NCBI GenBank assembly: GCA_031972375.1
Contig: DALYEU010000017.1
Span: 9,476 to 37,255, forward strand
From: a bacterium
GTDB taxonomy: Bacteria > UBA10199 > DSSB01
Direction: 5' to 3'
DNA length: 27,780 nucleotides
Positions 11,510 to 19,856 of this stretch are shown here, one piece after another (the stretch's first letter is position 1; each line of letters starts with the position of its first letter). The notes beneath the pieces were generated by a model, which was not told the origin of the DNA, made no database searches, and saw only the letters and a program-made list of their open reading frames with translations. Both the position numbers and the translations under genes were made by a program.

Positions 11510-12019
11510 TTAAATCCCGAGAATTTGTACGACCGCCTGACGGGTGCGTGGACCATCGAGGTCGATGAGGCAAAGACGCTGCCAGCGACCCCATACGGGT
11601 TGGCCATCTCTTACCAAAACAGTTTGTGAAGGGCCCCCGAACAAGAAGGCCTTCATATGGGCATCGGCATTGGTATCGCACTTGTGGTCGTCTTCGCAGA
11701 GGTTCTTCGTGCGCAGACCGCTATTGTGGAGATAGGACATCTTCTTAGGAATAAAATCTCGCAAGGCTTTATTGATATCGCCCAGTAGGCAGGGTTCGTC
11801 GAGTTCGTTCACACTAACGATACAAGTGGTGTGAAGGGCTTGGAGAGTCAGAAGACCATTTTGGATGCCGCTTTCCTTGACCCATTCGTAAGAAGTCTCG
11901 GTAAAATCGGTGATCGAGAAAAAATCGAAATCACCCACATGATTTAGAAGCTTGGGTTCTAGGTTGAGTAAATTGTTCTGGTCTGTTTGTATTTCGAGTT
12001 GTTTGTACCAGGTTTTCAT
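11510..12019 (-). CDS. YjbQ/UPF0047 family protein (secondary thiamine-phosphate synthase-like)
   Basis: LHTTCIVSVNELDEP and HMKAFLFGGPSQTVLVRDGQPVWGRWQRLCLIDLDGPRTRQAVVQILG match UPF0047 blocks (HTSASLTINEN...; HIKSSLLGSSLTIPV..G.L.LGTWQGIYL.EHRD....R.LVVTL). Confidence 0.75.
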   Translation of the reverse strand: MKTWYKQLEIQTDQNNLLNLEPKLLNHVGDFDFFSITDFTETSYEWVKESGIQNGLLTLQALHTTCIVSVNELDEPCLLGDINKALRDFIPKKMSYLHNSGLRTKNLCEDDHKCDTNADAHMKAFLFGGPSQTVLVRDGQPVWGRWQRLCLIDLDGPRTRQAVVQILGI

Positions 12020-12164: not shown

Positions 12165-12584
12165 TTAAGGCAAATTGAGTTGTAGCTTTGCGGCCTCGCT
12201 CATTTTTTCGGCTGACCACGGGGGATCCCAGGTCAACTCAACCTTGGCGGAGAGCACGCCCTCAACACTCCGTACTTTTTGTTCCACTTCGCCGGGGAGA
12301 GACTCGGCCACGGGACACATGGGGCTGGTAAGGGTCATGAGAATATTTACCTCGTTTTTTTCAGAAAGGGTGATCTGATAGATCAGGCCCAGTTCGTAGA
12401 TATTCACCGGGATTTCTGGATCGTAGCAGGTTTTGAGCGCCGCGACCACCTTTGCTTCCAAGTCATGGTCTTTGCCATGGAAGGTTTCTTGTTCTGCTGT
12501 GGTTGTGGGAGTTTCTGATGTCGTTTTCATAAACGAGGCATGGGGGTCGTGGATGGCGGCTTTGTTAGCAAAGTAATCATTCAT
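12165..12584 (-). CDS. sufT: SufT-like DUF59 (MIP18 family) Fe-S assembly protein, last gene of the suf operon
   Basis: CYDPEIPVNIYELGLIY...LTSPMCPVAESL is the DUF59 core. SD GAGGAA 5 nt upstream. Its ATG overlaps the sufU stop (ATGA). Confidence 0.7.
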   Translation of the reverse strand: MNDYFANKAAIHDPHASFMKTTSETPTTTAEQETFHGKDHDLEAKVVAALKTCYDPEIPVNIYELGLIYQITLSEKNEVNILMTLTSPMCPVAESLPGEVEQKVRSVEGVLSAKVELTWDPPWSAEKMSEAAKLQLNLP

Positions 12585-13048
12585 GGAAGTTCCTCAGCCT
12601 CTGTGGAAATTACTTCGTCCCGTCCTTCGAGGGCACTATTGAGCGTATGCCAGGCTAGGCTGGCGCATTTTACCCTGGAAGGAAACTCGCAAACACCGGC
12701 AAAGACGGCGAGTTTTCCCAGGTCAGGATCGGCGGGACTCCCTGGAGAGCCGGTGACCATTTTATGAAATTTTTTAAAAAGGGATTGAGCTTCTTCTAGG
12801 GTCTTCCCTTTCAATCCTTCTGTCATGAGCGAAGCCGAGGCTTTGGAAATAGCGCAGCCATTTCCTTCGAAACTCAGCTGGACGATGCGGTCACCCTCCA
12901 GATGCAAATACACTGTGAGATGGTCGCCGCAAAGCGGGTTATAGCCCTCGGCGTGACGATTGGCTTCCTCCATTCGGTGGAAGTTTCGTGGGCGTTTGTT
13001 GTGATCGAGAATCACCTCTTGGTAGAGTTCACGAAGTTCGGAAGACAT
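12581..13048 (-). CDS. sufU: SufU-type (zinc-dependent) sulfur-transfer / Fe-S scaffold-like protein
   Basis: NPLCGDHLTVYL, GNGCAISKASASLM and PSRVKCASLAWHTL are the three Cys-containing blocks of SufU/IscU-like proteins. 155 aa. 1-nt overlap with the sufS stop. Confidence 0.8.
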   Translation of the reverse strand: MSSELRELYQEVILDHNKRPRNFHRMEEANRHAEGYNPLCGDHLTVYLHLEGDRIVQLSFEGNGCAISKASASLMTEGLKGKTLEEAQSLFKKFHKMVTGSPGSPADPDLGKLAVFAGVCEFPSRVKCASLAWHTLNSALEGRDEVISTEAEELP

Positions 13049-14319
13049 TAGGCGAAGACCTCCTTAGCTTTGTGTAGGGCCAACACCAAGGCATCGATTT
13101 CTTCCCGGGTATTGTAAAAGCTCATAGAAGCACGGGCGGTGGCGGGTAATCCGTAGCGTAACATGAGGGGCATGGTGCAGTGATGTCCGGTACGAATGGC
13201 GATACCCCTGGCGTCCAGCAGGGTTCCTAAGTCGTGGGGATGGATATCTTCCATGACGAAGGAAATGACACTCGCTTTTTGCGTAGCCTGACCGATGATT
13301 TTCAGTCCGGGAATTTCACTTAGGACTTGGGTTCCGTATTGAAGCAAATCGTCTTCATGGCGCTGCACTAGGGACCAGTCTAAAGTTTGTAGATAGTCAA
13401 TGGCGGCCCCCAATCCAATGGCTCCGGCGATGTGGGGTGTGCCTGCTTCGAATTTATAGGGAAGACTGTTGTAAGTGGTCTTTTCAAAGGTGACTTGGCG
13501 AATCATGTCACCCCCACCTTGATAAGGGCTCATGATTTCGAGCAGCTTTTCTTTTCCGTAGAGGACGCCGATCCCCGTGGGGCCGAATAATTTATGTCCG
13601 GAAAAGGCGTAAAAATCCACATCGAGAGCTTGGACGTCTACTTGCAGGTGGGGAATGGCCTGTGCTCCATCAAGCAGTACGGGAATCCCGCGAGCATGGG
13701 CTTTAGCGATGATAGTTTCGACGGGATTGAGGGTTCCAAGAGCGTTGGAGATATGTACGATGGAAACCAGCTTTGTTTTTTCGCTGAGGAGTTTTTCAAA
13801 GGACTCTAAATCGAGTTCTCCCGAATCGGAAATGGGAACCACCTTGAGTTCGATGCCAATCTGATCGCGTAGCAATTGCCAGGGGACGATGTTGGAGTGA
13901 TGCTCCATGTGGCTAATAATAACTTCGTCGCCCCGTTGCCAAGAACTTCGGCCCAAGGATTGGGCCACCAGATTGATGGCTTCCGTAGTGCCTCGGCAAA
14001 AGAGAATTTCCCGGGCATGGGCCGCGTTGAGAAATTTTTGAATTTTGATTCGAGCTGCTTCGTATTGCTCGGTGGCTCTCTCACTCAATAGGTGTACGCC
14101 GCGATGGATGTTGGCGTTATCTTCTCTGTAATAGTGATCGAGGGCTTCGATGACTTGCCGAGGTTTTTGCGCAGTGGCCGCGTTGTCTAAATACACCAGA
14201 GGGAAGCCGCGCACATTTTGGTGTAGGATGGGAAAATCCTCCCGTAGCCGTTCTATCGAAAAGCTCGAAGCGTTAGCCGAGTCTGCCCGGAGTGGAGTCT
14301 TGCTCAGAGTGGCACTCAT
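13048..14319 (-). CDS. sufS: Cysteine desulfurase SufS (group II)
   Basis: PLP-lysine block [17 protein letters not shown] and active-site Cys block [11 protein letters not shown] (SufS RxGHHC). 423 aa. Its ATG overlaps the sufD stop (ATGA). Confidence 0.9.
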
Positions 14320-15644
14320 AAAAACTTTTCTCCCTCCACCGAAAGTTCGGCGATCTTCAATCGGTTCAGCAAGCTGCGTTCTAGCTGTTGCTTTAATTCG
14401 ATTTCGCTCATGTTTTGCAACACTTCACTCGCGAAGGCGTAAGTAAGCAAGTGGCGAGCCAAGGCCTCGTCGATACCTCGGGAACGCAAGTAAAACACCT
14501 GGGTTTCATCAAGTCGTCCAATGGTTGCTCCATGGGAACAACGTACATCGTTGGCAAAAATTTCCAAGAGGGGTTTGGTGTCGACTACAGCATCTCGTGA
14601 GAGCAGTAGATTTTTATTACTCAAGGAGGACTGGGTTTTTTGTGCATGGGGCTGGACTAGGATCTGTCCGTTAAAAATCCCATGGGATTTTTCATCGAGG
14701 ATTCCTTTGTAGAGTTCTTGGCTCGTGCATTGGGGTACGGCGTGACGGATCAGGGTTTGATTGTCGAGATGTTGTTGTCCGTGTCCTAGGTAGAGACCGG
14801 TGAGTTGACAATGGGCTCCGGGTTCTCCCAGATGGGAGCGTATTTCTGTGCGGGCCCATTGTGCGCCGAGATTCAGGTTGAAGGAATGAAATTGGGAGTC
14901 CCTATTTTGTTTTACGTAGAGCCCCCCCAGGTGAAAGGCGCGTTCGTCTTCTTCTTGGATACGATAATGACTCAATTGCGATCCCGACTCAGTGATGATT
15001 TCGGTCAAGGCGTTGGTGAAGTAGGGATGTTGCGAGCGTTTTCCCGAGTAGTTTTCCACCACCACGCCTTGGGCTTGGGCCTGGGCTACGATGAGCGTGC
15101 GAGGGTGGCTCGCTGTGGCGGCTTCATCGGAGAGTGATAAATAAAGTAATTCGAGAGGTTTTCCTAAAACAGCCCCCGGTGCGAGGTGGACGAAGGCCCC
15201 ATCTTGTAAAAAGGCCGTATTTAGGGCGCTGAAGGTCTCCTCTTGCCAAGGCGCGATGCTTCCCAGATAGGGACGGATTTTTTCATCATGACTGGTGAAG
15301 GCCATTTTTAAGGGCAGTATCGTGACGCCTTGGGGTAAATCCTCGAGTCGGGAAAATTCTTGGGCGAAGTGTCCGTTGATGAAGGTGATCCGATAGTTTT
15401 TCTTAGAACCGATATTCAAGCAGTTGAGCGGATCGTAATTACGATGCTTGGGTTGATAGTCCTCGCTTGCTTGAAAAGCAGTATCGAGGAGTGGGCGCAC
15501 CGAGGTGTATTTCCAGTTTTCTTGTTGAGCGCTAGGGTAGCCCAAGGACTGAAACTGTTGGAATCCCTGTTTGCGAATTTCCTGCAACCAAGCTGGGCCC
15601 TTCGCATCGGTTTGGCGGTAGTGTTGTAGAAATTGGTCTTCCAT
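14316..15644 (-). CDS. sufD: Fe-S cluster assembly protein SufD
   Basis: SufB/SufD-family beta-helix body lacking the SufB Cys motifs. Start re-set to ATG 15644..15642 (MEDQFLQ...), which has SD GGGAG 6 nt upstream and lies 1 nt after the sufC stop. The track's 15770 extension runs back into sufC. Confidence 0.8.
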
Positions 15645-15645
15645 C

Positions 15646-16407
15646 TTAGGCTCCCGTTGCTTCCTGGGTAACCCAGGCATAACCTTTTTCTTCCAAGTGG
15701 AAGGCGAGGTCTTTATCTCCCGAGTGCACAATTTTTCCGTCTTGAAGCACATGAACATAATCGGGAACAATATAATTGAGCAGTCGTTGGTAGTGGGTGA
15801 CCACGATCATGGAGCGCCCCGGATTGCGCAAGGAGTTGACTCCGTCGGCCACGATCTTAAGGGAGTCGATGTCTAGGCCCGAGTCGGTCTCGTCGAGTAG
15901 GCATAGGGTGGGTTCGAGTAAAGTCATCTGTAAAATTTCGTTACGCTTTTTTTCTCCACCCGAGAAACCCTCGTTCACATTGCGCTTGAGATATTTGTCA
16001 TCCATTTTGAGCAATTGCATTTTGGCCTTAATCAGGGTGAGAAAATCTATGGCGTCTAGTTCTTCTAGTCCACGAGCCTTACGTTGGGCGTTAAGAGCCG
16101 TTTTGAGGAAGTAGGTGTTTCCCACACCGGGGATTTCCAGGGGATATTGAAAGGCAAGGAAGATGCCGGCGTGAGAACGTTCTTCGGGGGAAAGGTCCAA
16201 GAGATTTTTGCCCTGATAAATAATTTCCCCTTCGGTGATTTCATAATCTTCTCGCCCGGCCAAAATGGAAGACAGGGTGCTTTTTCCCGAACCATTAGGA
16301 CCCATGATGGCGTGGATTTCTCCGGGTTCCACTTTCAAATCGATGCCTTTGAGAATGGGTTTTCCATCCACACGGGCGTGCAGATTTTTAATTTCTAGGA
16401 GACTCAT
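15646..16407 (-). CDS. sufC: Fe-S cluster assembly ATPase SufC
   Basis: Walker A GPNGSGKST, ABC signature FSGGEKKRNEILQ, Walker B LCLLDETDSGLD; 253 aa, a typical SufC. Confidence 0.9.
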   Translation of the reverse strand: MSLLEIKNLHARVDGKPILKGIDLKVEPGEIHAIMGPNGSGKSTLSSILAGREDYEITEGEIIYQGKNLLDLSPEERSHAGIFLAFQYPLEIPGVGNTYFLKTALNAQRKARGLEELDAIDFLTLIKAKMQLLKMDDKYLKRNVNEGFSGGEKKRNEILQMTLLEPTLCLLDETDSGLDIDSLKIVADGVNSLRNPGRSMIVVTHYQRLLNYIVPDYVHVLQDGKIVHSGDKDLAFHLEEKGYAWVTQEATGA

Positions 16408-16452
16408 GCTGTTTTATCCTTTCAAGATTTTGTCCATGGCTCAGGGAAAATG

Positions 16453-17901
16453 TCAGCCCACCGATCCTTCTAAACTCACTCCAAGAAGTTTTTGGGCTTC
16501 GACGGCAAATTCCATGGGAAGCTCGCGAAAGACCTCGCGGCAGAAACCATTGACGATCATGTTAACGGCGTCTTCTTCGGAAATTCCCCTTTGTTTGCAG
16601 TAAAATAACTGGTCTTCTCCGATTTTGGAGGTAGTCGCTTCGTGCTCCATTTGGGCTGAATGATTTTTAATTTCTAAATACGGAAAGGTATGGGCTCCGC
16701 ATTCATCCCCCATCAATAGGGAGTCGCATTGGGAGTAATTGCGGGCATTCTCGGCGTTTTTCATGATCTTGACTTGGCCGCGGTAGGTGTTTTGACTTTT
16801 TCCCGCCGATATTCCCTTGGAGATAATGGTGCTTCGGGTGTTTTTTCCAAGATGGATCATTTTGGTTCCCGTATCCGCTTGCTGATAATTGTTGGTGACC
16901 GCAACCGAATAGAATTCTCCAATGGAGTAGTCTCCAGCCAAGACACAGCTGGGATATTTCCAAGTGATGGCGGAACCCGTTTCCACTTGAGTCCACGAAA
17001 TTTTAGAATGATGCCCTTTGCAAAGACCTCGCTTGGTGACGAAGTTATAGATGCCACCTTTGCCTTCTTTGTCGCCTGGATACCAATTTTGCACGGTGGA
17101 GTATTTGATTTCGGCTTTATCTAAAGCCACTAATTCTACGACCGCCGCGTGCAGTTGGTTTTCGTCTCGCATGGGGGCCGTGCAACCTTCCAGGTAAGAG
17201 ACGTAACTCGCTTCATCGGCTACGATTAAGGTGCGTTCGAATTGCCCGGTTTGAGCGGCGTTAATGCGAAAGTAGGTGCTTAATTCCATGGGGCAGCGGA
17301 CGCCCTTGGGAATATAGGCGAAGGATCCGTCGGTGAAGACTGCTGAGTTAAGTGTGGCAAAGAAATTGTCAGTGTAAGGGACTACCGATCCTAAATATTT
17401 TTTCACCAGTTCGGGATGTTCTTGTACGGCTTCGGAGAAAGAACAAAAAATGATTCCTAGTTCGGCGAGTTTTTCCTTAAAGGTGGTTCCCACGGAAACG
17501 CTGTCGAAAACTGCGTCGACGGCCACATTGCTAAGGCGTTTTTGTTCTTCCAGGGAAATACCCAATTTGTTGAATGTCTCCAAAATCTCGGGATCCACTT
17601 CGTCGAGGCTGTTAAGTTGTTTTTTCTTTTTAGGAGCCGAATAGTAATAGCTGTCCTGATAGTCGATGGGGGGGTATTGAACCTTGGCCCATTGGGGCTC
17701 TTTCAGGGTCAACCAATGTCGATAAGCTTTTAGGCGCCATTCTAATAGCCACTCAGGTTCGTTTTTTTTCTGAGAGATGATGCGGACAATATCCTCGCTC
17801 AAGCCTTTGGGAATGGTCTCCGTTTCAACGGATGTGACGAAGCCATATTGATATTCTTTGGAGGTTAATTCTTGGACAGCTGAATTATTTTGTTGGGTCA
17901 T
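16453..17901 (-). CDS. sufB: Fe-S cluster assembly protein SufB
   Basis: Blocks conserved throughout SufB: [23 protein letters not shown]..., [16 protein letters not shown]. Start re-set to ATG 17901..17899, which has SD AAGGAGAG and overlaps the rrf2 stop (ATGA). The track's upstream extension to 18057 overlaps rrf2. Confidence 0.9.
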
Positions 17902-18350
17902 GGTGCTCTCCTTTCTGAGAGGAAGTTTCCGGGTGCCAGGTCGGCTACCGTTGTCTCCGCCAAAAGATGGTAGATCCTCATGTTGAGTTCGGAGAGGGGG
18001 GTTTTGATTCGACAATCGTCCCATTGCGGACAGGTAATTTTTTCTTCCTTTAAACATTCGGTGACCGCCAGGGGACCCTCAAAAATTTCGGCCACGTCGG
18101 CTACGGTAATGGTTTCAGGGGACTTTGCCAGACGGTAACCGCCCTTGGTGCCGTGGACGGCCTTGATAAGACCTTTACTCGCCAGTTGCTGGAGTACTTT
18201 GGCCAAAAGGGGTTGGGGAATATGGTAGGCTTCGGAGATTTCCCGGGTGCTGGTGAGTAAATTCGAGGGGATAAAGTTGTTTTCACCCTTGCGCAACATA
18301 TGCTCGATGGCGATGAGAGCGTATTCAGTTTTTCGATTAAAATGCAGCAT
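17898..18350 (-). CDS. Rrf2-family transcriptional regulator with a three-Cys cluster (IscR/SufR-like putative [Fe-S] sensor), first gene of the suf operon
   Basis: N-terminal wHTH typical of Rrf2 ([19 protein letters not shown]...). The C-terminal [15 protein letters not shown] has three Cys positioned as the cluster ligands of IscR/NsrR-type regulators. Confidence 0.8.
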
Positions 18351-18360
18351 AAGTAATTTT

Positions 18361-18380
18361 TAGACTTTTCTAGTCGTATA
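18361..18380. promoter_or_regulatory. Candidate Rrf2 operator: TAGACTTTTCTAGTCGTATA containing a GACT-N5-AGTC palindrome, 11-30 nt upstream of the rrf2 start. The 10-mer TAGTCGTATA recurs inverted at 18457-18466 and as a 9-mer at 18496-18504
   Basis: Read directly from the sequence. GACT/AGTC half-sites with 5-nt spacing resemble, from memory, the E. coli IscR type-1 site core (GACTrwwwyAGTC). There are three copies within 150 bp of the operon's control region. Confidence 0.4.
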
Positions 18381-18400
18381 AAAACCAAAAATAAAAAACA

Positions 18401-18440
18401 AAAAAACCTTTAAATATTATGGTTTTTTAGTTTTTTTTCT
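18401..18440. terminator. AT-rich hairpin AAAAAACC-N12-GGTTTTTT flanked by T-runs on both strands. Possible bidirectional terminator (encapsulin operon 3' end), or an A-tract/UP-like element of the rrf2-suf promoter
   Basis: Stem 18401-18408/18421-18428 (only 2 GC pairs), followed by TTTTTTAGTTTTTTTT on the plus strand and TTTGTTTTTTATTTTTGGTTTTT on the minus strand. Confidence 0.3.
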
Positions 18441-18633
18441 CCCTAAGAATCTTAAATATACGACTATCATGGTCTTGTATAAGGCGCAACGGGCGAGTCG
18501 TATAGGGAATTTTTAAATAAATGTAAAGGTGCATTCTCGAGGTGTTTGTGGCGCGAATCGCCAGAGCTGGAGGCAAGACGGCACACACCCATATTACCGG
18601 GGGGAGGGGAATATGGTGGGGCGAAATTTGAGT

Positions 18634-19446
18634 TTAGGGGGCGGAGTGTAGCAGGGGTACTGCGGCTTGGGGGCTCAAATTTTGGAAAGTGAGACTTTCT
18701 TCCAGGTACAGCGTTACCTCTGTTTCGTTGTGATGAAGGTAGCCCACTGAAAAATCTTGACCTACGGTCAACTGAAAATCCCCACCGCGTAAACTCAAAA
18801 CGATGGCGCCTTTGAGGGCTGGGGCCCACACGATAGGGCCTTCGAGTTCTCGTTTGACGTGTTGTAGGATGGGGTAGCCCCCTTTGGAAGTGGTCTGAGA
18901 GAGTCCTTGGTAGCATTGAGGGCCCAAGGCGATGGCATAGGGCCCTTCGATACCATGGCTTCGCAAGAGGTTAGTGGCTTCGGCGACCAGGCGGGGATAT
19001 TTTTCATAGTCGTCGGAAATCTTAAGAGACTGCTTTTTGGCTGCTGTGAAAATTCCCTCAATGCCTGCCTCGGAGTTTCCCTGAAAGATAAGTTGGTCTT
19101 CTGTGAGCGCGGCGCGTTGAGCTGCCTGAACGACGGCATCAAGGTTGGGATTGGCGCAAGCTCGGTCGATGGCTTCAAGCTCGACGAGTTTTAGGGTGAA
19201 AGGAACGCGAATTTCTACGAGTGGTTGCACTTGGCGGATTCCAAGCTCCACTCCGGAGCTTGAGTTTTTTCCTAATTTTTCCACTCGCCCCAAGGGAATG
19301 GAACCGAAGGCCCAACCATGGGGTCCTGAAAAATCGACGAGGCGACGCCCAGCCAGGCCTAATTTAAGGGTCCGGGTGGCTTCTTGAGAGAGGGCGTTCC
19401 AGGCTTCGGTCGATAGGGGAGCGAGGTGGCGTTTTAAATGGCTCAT
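18634..19446 (-). CDS. Family-1 encapsulin nanocompartment shell protein (Linocin M18 / HK97-fold)
   Basis: 270 aa, alignable end to end with T. maritima and M. tuberculosis (Cfp29) encapsulins. MSHLKRHLAPLSTEAWNALSQEATRTLKLGLAGRRLVDFSGPHGWAFGSIPLGRV matches MNNLYRDLAPVTEAAWAEIELEAARTFKRHIAGRRVVDVSDPGG. LRGGDFQLTVGQDFSVGYLHHNETEVTLYLEESLTFQ matches TRGGDFDLQLGTDVAIGYASHDTDTVRLYLQETLTF. Its ATG overlaps the stop of the upstream cargo gene. Confidence 0.85.
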   Translation of the reverse strand: MSHLKRHLAPLSTEAWNALSQEATRTLKLGLAGRRLVDFSGPHGWAFGSIPLGRVEKLGKNSSSGVELGIRQVQPLVEIRVPFTLKLVELEAIDRACANPNLDAVVQAAQRAALTEDQLIFQGNSEAGIEGIFTAAKKQSLKISDDYEKYPRLVAEATNLLRSHGIEGPYAIALGPQCYQGLSQTTSKGGYPILQHVKRELEGPIVWAPALKGAIVLSLRGGDFQLTVGQDFSVGYLHHNETEVTLYLEESLTFQNLSPQAAVPLLHSAP

Positions 19447-19829
19447 GATTTAAGGTCTCCTTTGAGGCTACCGATCTTGAGGGATTCATCGTGGCTCTGT
19501 GTTTTGTCGGGGGCATCGTTTACTGAGGAGTTTCCTTCTAAGGAAAGCAGGTCTCCTTCAGTAAAGAGATAGGTGCGTAGTTGCTCATCCAGTTGGGGGT
19601 CGCGACGCCGCAACCATTCTAAGGTGATGGCGGCGTGCTCTTTTTCTTCGTCGCGGTTATGTTGCAGGATGGCCCGCAATTCTGCATCTTCGGTGGCATC
19701 GGCTCGCTGATCGTACCAGTCGGCGGCCTCGAGTTCTTCGATGATGGAAATATAAGCTCGATGGCGCTCGATGGTTTCAGGCTTGAGCTTTTCTTTTTCT
19801 TCGTGAAGTCCCATGCTGGCACCGCTCAT
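19443..19829 (-). CDS. Encapsulated ferritin-like protein (EncFtn) cargo with a C-terminal encapsulin targeting peptide
   Basis: HRAYISIIEELEAADWYDQRADATEDAELRAILQHNRDEEKEHAAITLEWLRRRD matches the EncFtn core (EExxH iron site; from memory very close to R. rubrum EncFtn). The C-terminal ...DESLKIGSLKGDLKS fits the family-1 cargo-loading peptide (..SLxIGSLKG..). True start is ATG 19829 with SD GAGGAG 6 nt upstream; the track's 19856 start is a GTG inside a palindrome. Confidence 0.8.
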   Translation of the reverse strand: MSGASMGLHEEKEKLKPETIERHRAYISIIEELEAADWYDQRADATEDAELRAILQHNRDEEKEHAAITLEWLRRRDPQLDEQLRTYLFTEGDLLSLEGNSSVNDAPDKTQSHDESLKIGSLKGDLKS

Positions 19830-19846
19830 GTTTTGCTCCTCATTGG

Positions 19847-19856
19847 GTGATATCAC
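19847..19856. promoter_or_regulatory. Perfect 10-bp palindrome GTGATATCAC just upstream of the EncFtn SD, next to an AT-rich stretch (GATGGATATTATTG). Candidate operator
   Basis: Read directly from the sequence, at -18 to -27 relative to the EncFtn ATG. Confidence 0.3.

Follow-up and report, generated by a model that had tools for sequence, protein, structure and literature searches.

Candidate operators for an Rrf2-family regulator at the promoter of a suf operon in an uncultured bacterial lineage

Autorepression of an Fe-S biogenesis operon by an Rrf2 regulator is a well-established principle. The closest characterised case to the locus described here is RisR of Myxococcus xanthus (Rrf2 subgroup IS6, WP_011551272.1), whose gene comes first in risR-sufBCDSUT (Sourice et al. 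2023, PMC9973013). The Fe-S-loaded form of RisR, probably carrying a [4Fe-4S] cluster, represses both suf and isc, and the DNase-mapped footprint of the holo-protein, T(t/g)GAC-N7-GTCC(t/a), overlaps the -10 and -35 elements (PMC9973013). The wild-type M. xanthus Psuf site, rebuilt by us from the mutagenic primers given in PMC9973013, is GGACTGAAACGGTCC. For IscR, the type-1 consensus ATASYYGACTRWWWYAGTCRRSTAT, from the E. coli and P. aeruginosa iscR promoters, has a GACT-N5-AGTC core with essential outer AT arms, and the P. aeruginosa iscR promoter combines a strong primary site with a weaker helper site (PMC6599224).

The window, by which we mean the whole 27,780-bp stretch of DNA that was analysed, contains a locus that resembles that of RisR in its gene order, regulator-sufB-C-D-S-U-T, and in the three conserved cysteines of the regulator. 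In both, an operator core GAC-N7-GTC with AT-rich flanks, a candidate one in the window, overlaps promoter hexamers, and Psuf (GGACTGAAACGGTCC) and the window sites share the GGACT-N5-RGTCC format. By analogy, the negative feedback exerted by the holo-form of RisR as repressor may also operate in the window. The two systems differ in several respects. The cysteines are arranged as CX9CX5C (Cys92/102/108) in RisR and as CX7CX5C in the window Rrf2; the type of cluster and the sensing logic could therefore differ. The cluster-binding loops do not align: a 33-residue RisR fragment derived from the primers matches over eight residues only, GPxAxTEC, and a protein search with this partial query, padded, returned no candidate. 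The flanks are strictly TATA in the window, whereas those of RisR are T(t/g), and the window has two full sites plus a half-site, whereas no second site at about 99 bp has been described for RisR.

The GACT-N5-AGTC core of the IscR type-1 sites is identical to that of the window dyads; both have AT-rich arms (ATA/TAT) and several sites per promoter, located over the -35 and -10 elements. Holo-dependent binding and autorepression are known for IscR and would be expected of the window Rrf2. However, the ATA lies 3 nt from GACT in IscR sites and 1 nt from it in the window, and the type-1 25-mer ATASYYGACTRWWWYAGTCRRSTAT has no match within three mismatches anywhere in the window. Furthermore, the helper site is adjacent in the IscR promoter but 99 bp away in the window, and the window operon is suf, not isc. 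The regulators described by TIGR02944 (Xanthomonas-type) and RirA are also Rrf2 proteins linked to suf or iron genes. The RirA operator, the IRO box TGA-N9-TCA, is unlike the window dyad. We predict from these comparisons that the window Rrf2 works like RisR, or like IscR at its type-1 sites. The window circuit would join a well-known type, found here in an uncultured lineage and with an arrangement of two sites that is conserved.

The rrf2-suf locus and its repeat

All genes around the motif are located on the minus strand. In the direction of transcription they are EncFtn (137 amino acids, 19443-19856), encapsulin (270 amino acids, 18634-19446), rrf2 (17898-18350, encoding a 150-residue Rrf2-family regulator; Pfam PF02082, E = 9e-30), sufBCDSU with a SufT-like gene (12165-17901, by Pfam assignments) and, after a gap of about 145 bp, a UPF0047-family gene (169 amino acids, 11510-12019). 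The stop codon of rrf2 and the start codon of sufB overlap as ATGA (17898-17901), and a GGAG ribosome-binding sequence lies within the 3' end of rrf2, making it almost certain that the regulator and the suf genes form one transcript. The same two features imply that translation of rrf2 and sufB may be coupled. The overlap also indicates that the start at 18057 assigned to a 534-residue SufB in the list of open reading frames is probably too far upstream.

EncFtn and encapsulin are an iron-storage pair directly upstream of rrf2-suf and oriented in the same direction. The pair is present at this place in none of the 25 orthologous loci described below, including L001, whose Rrf2 is 95% identical. 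Between the pair and rrf2-suf, no intrinsic terminator was detected; a terminator scan of 18200-18800 gave a single terminator-like hairpin, inside the encapsulin gene. Apart from the two dyads described below, the operator matrix found no site of 6-9 bits or more upstream of EncFtn-encapsulin or elsewhere in the window.

The intergenic region between encapsulin and rrf2 is 283 bp long and contains three exact copies of AGTCGTATA, at 18372-18380, 18457-18465 and 18496-18504, together spanning 148 bp. A scan of the whole window found no fourth copy, even with one mismatch allowed. In 100 dinucleotide-preserving shuffles of the window, the 9-mer occurred 0.05 times on average and at most once, and no shuffle reached three copies, in agreement with the first-pass annotation, which had judged the repeat unlikely to arise by chance. 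The sequences on which that annotation was based are located where it had placed them: TAGACTTTTCTAGTCGTATA at 18361-18380, TATACGACTATCATGGTCTTGTATA at 18457-18481 and AGTCGTATA at 18496-18504. So is the palindrome near the start of rrf2, with GACT at 18363-18366, a spacer of 5 nt and AGTC at 18372-18375. The motifs are indeed upstream of rrf2, which runs on the minus strand from an ATG at 18350-18348. The suggestion that all three copies are operators holds in part: two of them are contained in full 23-bp dyads, while the third, at 18496-18504, is a lone half-site when judged with the ortholog-only matrix.

The candidate main operator, O-main, is an imperfect 23-bp dyad at 18457-18479 that reads TACAAGACC-ATGAT-AGTCGTATA on the minus strand; its position is orthologous to that of the strongest palindrome in 24 other loci. 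The candidate proximal operator, O-prox, at 18358-18380, reads TATACGACT-AGAAA-AGTCTAAAA on the same strand; its GACT-N5-AGTC core is perfect, as is one of its arms, TATAC, and it ends 7 nt from the ATG of rrf2. Both were found with the ortholog-only matrix. The isolated half-site, TATACGACT on the minus strand at 18496-18504, is an exact copy of the 9-mer and has no score as a full dyad. Together with the AGTCGTATA half of O-main, 30 bp away, it makes up an inverted repeat of 9 bp without mismatch, and it is identical in L001. We also considered TATACGACTC as the core of a T7 promoter (ATACGACTCACTATAG) and rejected it; the likeness ends after nine bases, and the conserved dyad explains the motif.

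The conserved palindrome and promoter-like elements

A genome scan with an alignment of the Rrf2 protein yielded 25 orthologous loci, each in a metagenome-assembled genome from an uncultured bacterium. Several of the isolate names contain UBA10199; other genomes are labelled 'Deltaproteobacteria', Pseudomonadota or Myxococcota. The Rrf2 proteins are 54-95% identical to that of the window, and the order rrf2-sufB-sufC-sufD is kept in every locus whose contig extends downstream. Upstream of rrf2, 24 of the 25 loci contain the 23-bp palindrome TATA[A/G/C]GACT-N5-AGTC[T/C/G]TATA, at a distance from the ATG of roughly 105-150 nt or roughly 23-45 nt; the only locus without it, L013, is on a contig that stops 70 nt upstream.

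A position weight matrix was constructed from 23 ortholog sites, leaving out the window and the near-identical L001. In the 27.8-kb window it identifies exactly two sites, 18457-18479 with a score of 21-23 bits and 18358-18380 with a score of about 14-20 bits. Thirty shuffled windows reached 15 bits at most, with a mean maximum of 7. The matrix columns reveal that the GAC and GTC bases are conserved as sequence, beyond mere pairing. In 144.5 kb of orthologous loci, all sites of at least 20 bits are located upstream of rrf2, 28-154 nt from its ATG. Within these sequences the motif is not a common repeat, an outcome that the first-pass annotation had named as one that would speak against operators.

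An alignment of the loci on the main palindrome shows TTGACA, with at most one mismatch, at a fixed offset in 14 of the 25: it precedes the palindrome by 4 nt. The background rate is 1.5% per position. The column consensus running from this element into the palindrome is cCTTGAC...tA-TATAaGACTAattTAGTCTTATA. With this offset the hexamers become TTGACA-N17-TAGTCT, so that the right half-site doubles as a -10 element (TAnnnT) and a protein bound to it would occlude the promoter. The first T of TAGTCT, at palindrome position 14, has an information content of 1.55 bits and its symmetry partner one of 0.5 bits; this asymmetric conservation supports the role of the right half-site as a -10 element. 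Farther upstream, 41-49 nt from the palindrome, a second TTGACA-like hexamer is followed 17 nt on by a TATA-like hexamer in 16 of 25 loci (P1).

In the window, candidate promoter P1 (18499-18527, minus strand) would be composed of TTTACA at 18527-18522, a 17-nt spacer and TATACG at 18504-18499, as proposed from its sequence and the ortholog pattern. Candidate promoter P2 (18461-18489, minus strand), placed by the ortholog pattern, would be composed of TTGCGC at 18489-18484, a 17-nt spacer and TAGTCG at 18466-18461; the window hexamers are degenerate, those of the orthologs strong (TTGACA-N17-TAGTCT). The -10 hexamer of P1 lies inside the extra half-site TATACGACT (18496-18504), and a transcript from P1 would begin just upstream of the main operator. 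A generic sigma-70 scan of 18200-18800 detected no promoter at its thresholds; as the window hexamers are also poor, the placement of the promoters follows from ortholog conservation. The first-pass annotation had described the sites as overlapping two -10 hexamers, TATACG and TATATT. The former stands, being the candidate -10 element of P1, the promoter farther upstream; at the main site, TAGTCG takes the place of TATATT as the conserved candidate.

The second site and the AT-rich leader

Long AT-rich leaders, of 87-131 nt, are present in 19 loci, including the window. In each, the highest-scoring match to the matrix on the downstream side of the main site was compared with shuffled leaders, and in nine of the 19 this proximal match is significant (beating at least 98% of the shuffles). 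Eight of these nine matches are located 97-99 bp centre-to-centre from the main site (in the window, L001, L003, L004, L005, L006, L009 and L011) and 1-29 nt from the start codon; the ninth, in L024, is at 77 bp. Once weaker matches are counted, 11 of the 19 leaders have a proximal match at 97-99 bp. In the window, O-prox and O-main are 99 bp apart, centre-to-centre, and the window proximal site is the strongest of the set.

The spacer between the two operators (18381-18456) consists, on the minus strand, of A-tracts followed by T-tracts. The AT-rich hairpin that the first-pass annotation had seen between the sites is present, but the leader RNA folds no better than shuffled sequences (z = -0.9), and an Rfam scan of 18250-18750 at E <= 1 gave no match. 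A box, YAANNNNTTGATW, recurs in the ortholog leaders (L002-L024) and agrees with the IHF consensus of E. coli when this is read as its reverse complement. The match is perfect in 6 of the 19 leaders (shuffle mean 0.39, maximum 3); if one mismatch is tolerated, 17 of the 19 have the box (shuffle mean 7.3). In about 12 loci its centre lies 45-47 bp downstream of that of the main dyad, roughly at the midpoint between the operators, and its orientation is constant; examples are TAACTTATTGATA in L003, TAACCTATTGATT in L004 and TAAGTATTTGATA in L006. The box YAANNNNTTGATW was not found in the spacer of the window, where the A-tracts and T-tracts occur instead.

Alternatively, the box could be the -35 element of a third promoter; with the conserved TTGAW of the AT-rich spacer as -35, no consistent -10 was found on inspection at 16-18 nt across the loci. 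The operator-box-operator layout suggests that binding may be cooperative, through a bent or looped spacer. A more far-reaching and rather unlikely proposal is that Rrf2 dimers bound cooperatively to two operators, which are kept 97-99 bp apart in divergent lineages, would form a repression loop with help from intrinsic curvature or from a protein that bends DNA, and that the same dyad would define a broad Fe-S and iron regulon across several uncultured phyla, including the 296-residue protein family mentioned below. We know of no Rrf2-family regulator for which loop-based action has been reported. Whether Rrf2 repressors loop DNA could be addressed concretely with the conserved two-site geometry.

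The loci L012, L015, L018, L019, L022 and L025 have a short-leader variant, in which two tandem dyads share one TATA and are located 23-65 nt from the ATG, without an AT-rich leader and without a proximal site. In the upstream dyad of this variant, the -35 element of P2, TTGAC, is embedded within the N5 spacer, as in L025 (TATAGGACCTTGACAGTCTTATAAGACTAATTTAGTCTTATA).

The regulator, its predicted action and the reach of the dyad

An alignment of 26 homologues shows no variation at Cys98, Cys106, Cys112 or Glu8 of the window Rrf2. Three invariant cysteines are typical of cluster-binding Rrf2 proteins. The window protein has the three cysteine ligands that characterise this subset, and we predict that it binds a cluster. 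It passes the Pfam Rrf2 model (PF02082) with 104 bits (cutoff 30) and, among the NCBIfam models, only that of the Rrf2 superfamily, TIGR00738, with 100 bits (cutoff 73.3). Of the named models, TIGR02944 (SUF regulator, Xanthomonas type) and RirA (NF008886) score best, at about 79 bits each, and remain below their cutoffs (79.2 against 110.65 bits and 78.8 against 193 bits, respectively). The same is true of IscR (TIGR02010, 57.1 against 207.55 bits; NF008110, 36.3 against 275 bits), NsrR (NF008240, 57.8 against 182 bits) and CymR (NF047409, 55.4 against 195 bits). The best relative of solved structure is the IscR of Thermincola potens (E = 2e-11). The window Rrf2 probably belongs to a distinct Rrf2 clade.

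We consider it likely, with a probability of roughly 0.8, that the repeats are autoregulatory operators of a cluster-bearing Rrf2 repressor, encoded just downstream as the first gene of a rrf2-sufBCDSU-sufT-like operon. That the sites are operators for the adjacent Rrf2 at the promoter had been put forward in the first-pass annotation, and ortholog conservation, the specificity of the matrix, the promoter geometry and the core shared with RisR and IscR all support it; we infer from these that Rrf2 occupies the sites. An Rrf2 dimer would recognise the 23-bp dyad TATA[A/G/C]GACT-N5-AGTC[T/C/G]TATA. At O-main, it would cover the spacer and the -10 element of P2, as well as positions of about +13 to +35 when counted from the start predicted for P1, while the extra half-site at 18496-18504 would overlap the -10 element of P1. 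Located in this way, the bound protein should block either the binding of RNA polymerase or its escape. O-prox would probably reinforce the repression, as a roadblock or by forming a DNA loop with O-main. Transposing what is known of RisR and IscR to the window, the holo, cluster-loaded protein would be the form that binds. With Fe-S clusters in plentiful supply the operon would be off; when iron or clusters become limiting, or under oxidative stress, the cluster would be lost and the operon derepressed.

Other readings differ from this one in the protein that binds or in the form in which it does so. The dyads could be operators for a factor encoded elsewhere, either an Rrf2 paralogue or an unrelated winged-helix dimer, with the adjacent Rrf2 binding something else. 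An adjacent rrf2 is not required, as at least 31 dyads in metagenome contigs are located directly upstream of sufB, mostly without an rrf2 next to them (e.g. L115), and the protein that binds could be a paralogous Rrf2. In addition, at least 18 metagenome dyads precede Rrf2 genes whose products are only 26-34% identical to the window protein, suggesting that several Rrf2 lineages use the dyad and that regulation in trans exists. Within the clade, however, the dyad accompanies rrf2 in 24 of 25 loci, and it is itself of the Rrf2 type (GAC-N7-GTC), so that we regard a foreign binder as distinctly unlikely. Less likely still is that Rrf2 binds in its apo form or independently of a cluster, perhaps as an activator rather than as a holo-repressor. 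A precedent exists at the E. coli suf promoter, where apo-IscR activates suf through type-2 sites (PMC9973013). Moreover, the spacing of the cluster ligands is unlike that of RisR, and the sequence is silent on the form that binds. The location of O-main, over the spacer and -10 element of one promoter and just past the start of the other, is nevertheless one for repression and not for class I or class II activation, and the dyad looks like the type-1 and RisR sites, whose binding is holo-dependent, rather than like the type-2 consensus.

Two further explanations do without a regulator bound to DNA. Hairpins formed by the palindromes in a long 5' leader could control stability or translation of the RNA, for example with GACU-N5-AGUC, 7 nt ahead of the AUG, masking the ribosome-binding region. 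The proximal dyad and the A/U tracts do pair in the predicted fold, and the leaders are long and AT-rich, many of them having no obvious Shine-Dalgarno sequence. Yet the fold is not more stable than expected (z = -0.9) and matches no Rfam family, and GAC and GTC are kept as sequence rather than only as pairs. The main dyad also contains the -10 element of P2 in the orthologs and would thus not be fully transcribed from that promoter. Together this makes action at the RNA level very improbable. The AT-rich context by itself might allow a chance repeat, or a dispersed REP- or MITE-like element, with no regulatory role. Against an expectation of 0.05 copies there are three, the 9-mer is found nowhere else in the window, and the conservation of the dyad at the orthologous position and its link to suf and rrf2 in metagenomes refute this idea, to which we give next to no credence.

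The metagenome dyads were found in a scan of contigs for the exact pattern TATARGACT-N5-AGTCYTATA, followed by clustering of the flanking genes. At least 120 contigs (L026-L145) contain the perfect dyad. Apart from the sufB and Rrf2 genes mentioned above, at least 16 dyads are located upstream of members of a 296-residue protein family without a Pfam match (e.g. L052 and L063), and, among the matches listed, single dyads precede nitroreductase-like, NIR_SIR, hemerythrin and DUF438, HD, ABM and TonB-receptor-like genes. These contexts, together with the sites in L007 and L010 described below, lead us to predict that the dyad serves widely as an operator, in association with Rrf2 regulators and with Fe-S and iron genes. 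The pattern TATARGACT-N5-AGTCYTATA is a testable operator consensus which, combined with the promoter model, addresses Fe-S homeostasis in an uncultured lineage and links that lineage (labelled UBA10199, 'Deltaproteobacteria' or Myxococcota) to the RisR paradigm. Since many environmental genomes have the dyad at suf and other iron or Fe-S related genes, metagenomes could serve for the reconstruction of regulons.

Two of the orthologous loci contain an operator-like site at a further gene. In L007, the sequence TATAAGACCGATTAAGTCTCTTA at 2074-2096 scores 15.3 bits and is located 2 nt from the ATG of a divergent gene for a cysteine-desulfurase-like protein of 396 residues, about 0.9 kb upstream of rrf2. 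The equivalent site near the divergent cysteine-desulfurase-like gene of L010 scores 10.7 bits, and in both genomes this gene is likely to be a second member of the regulon.
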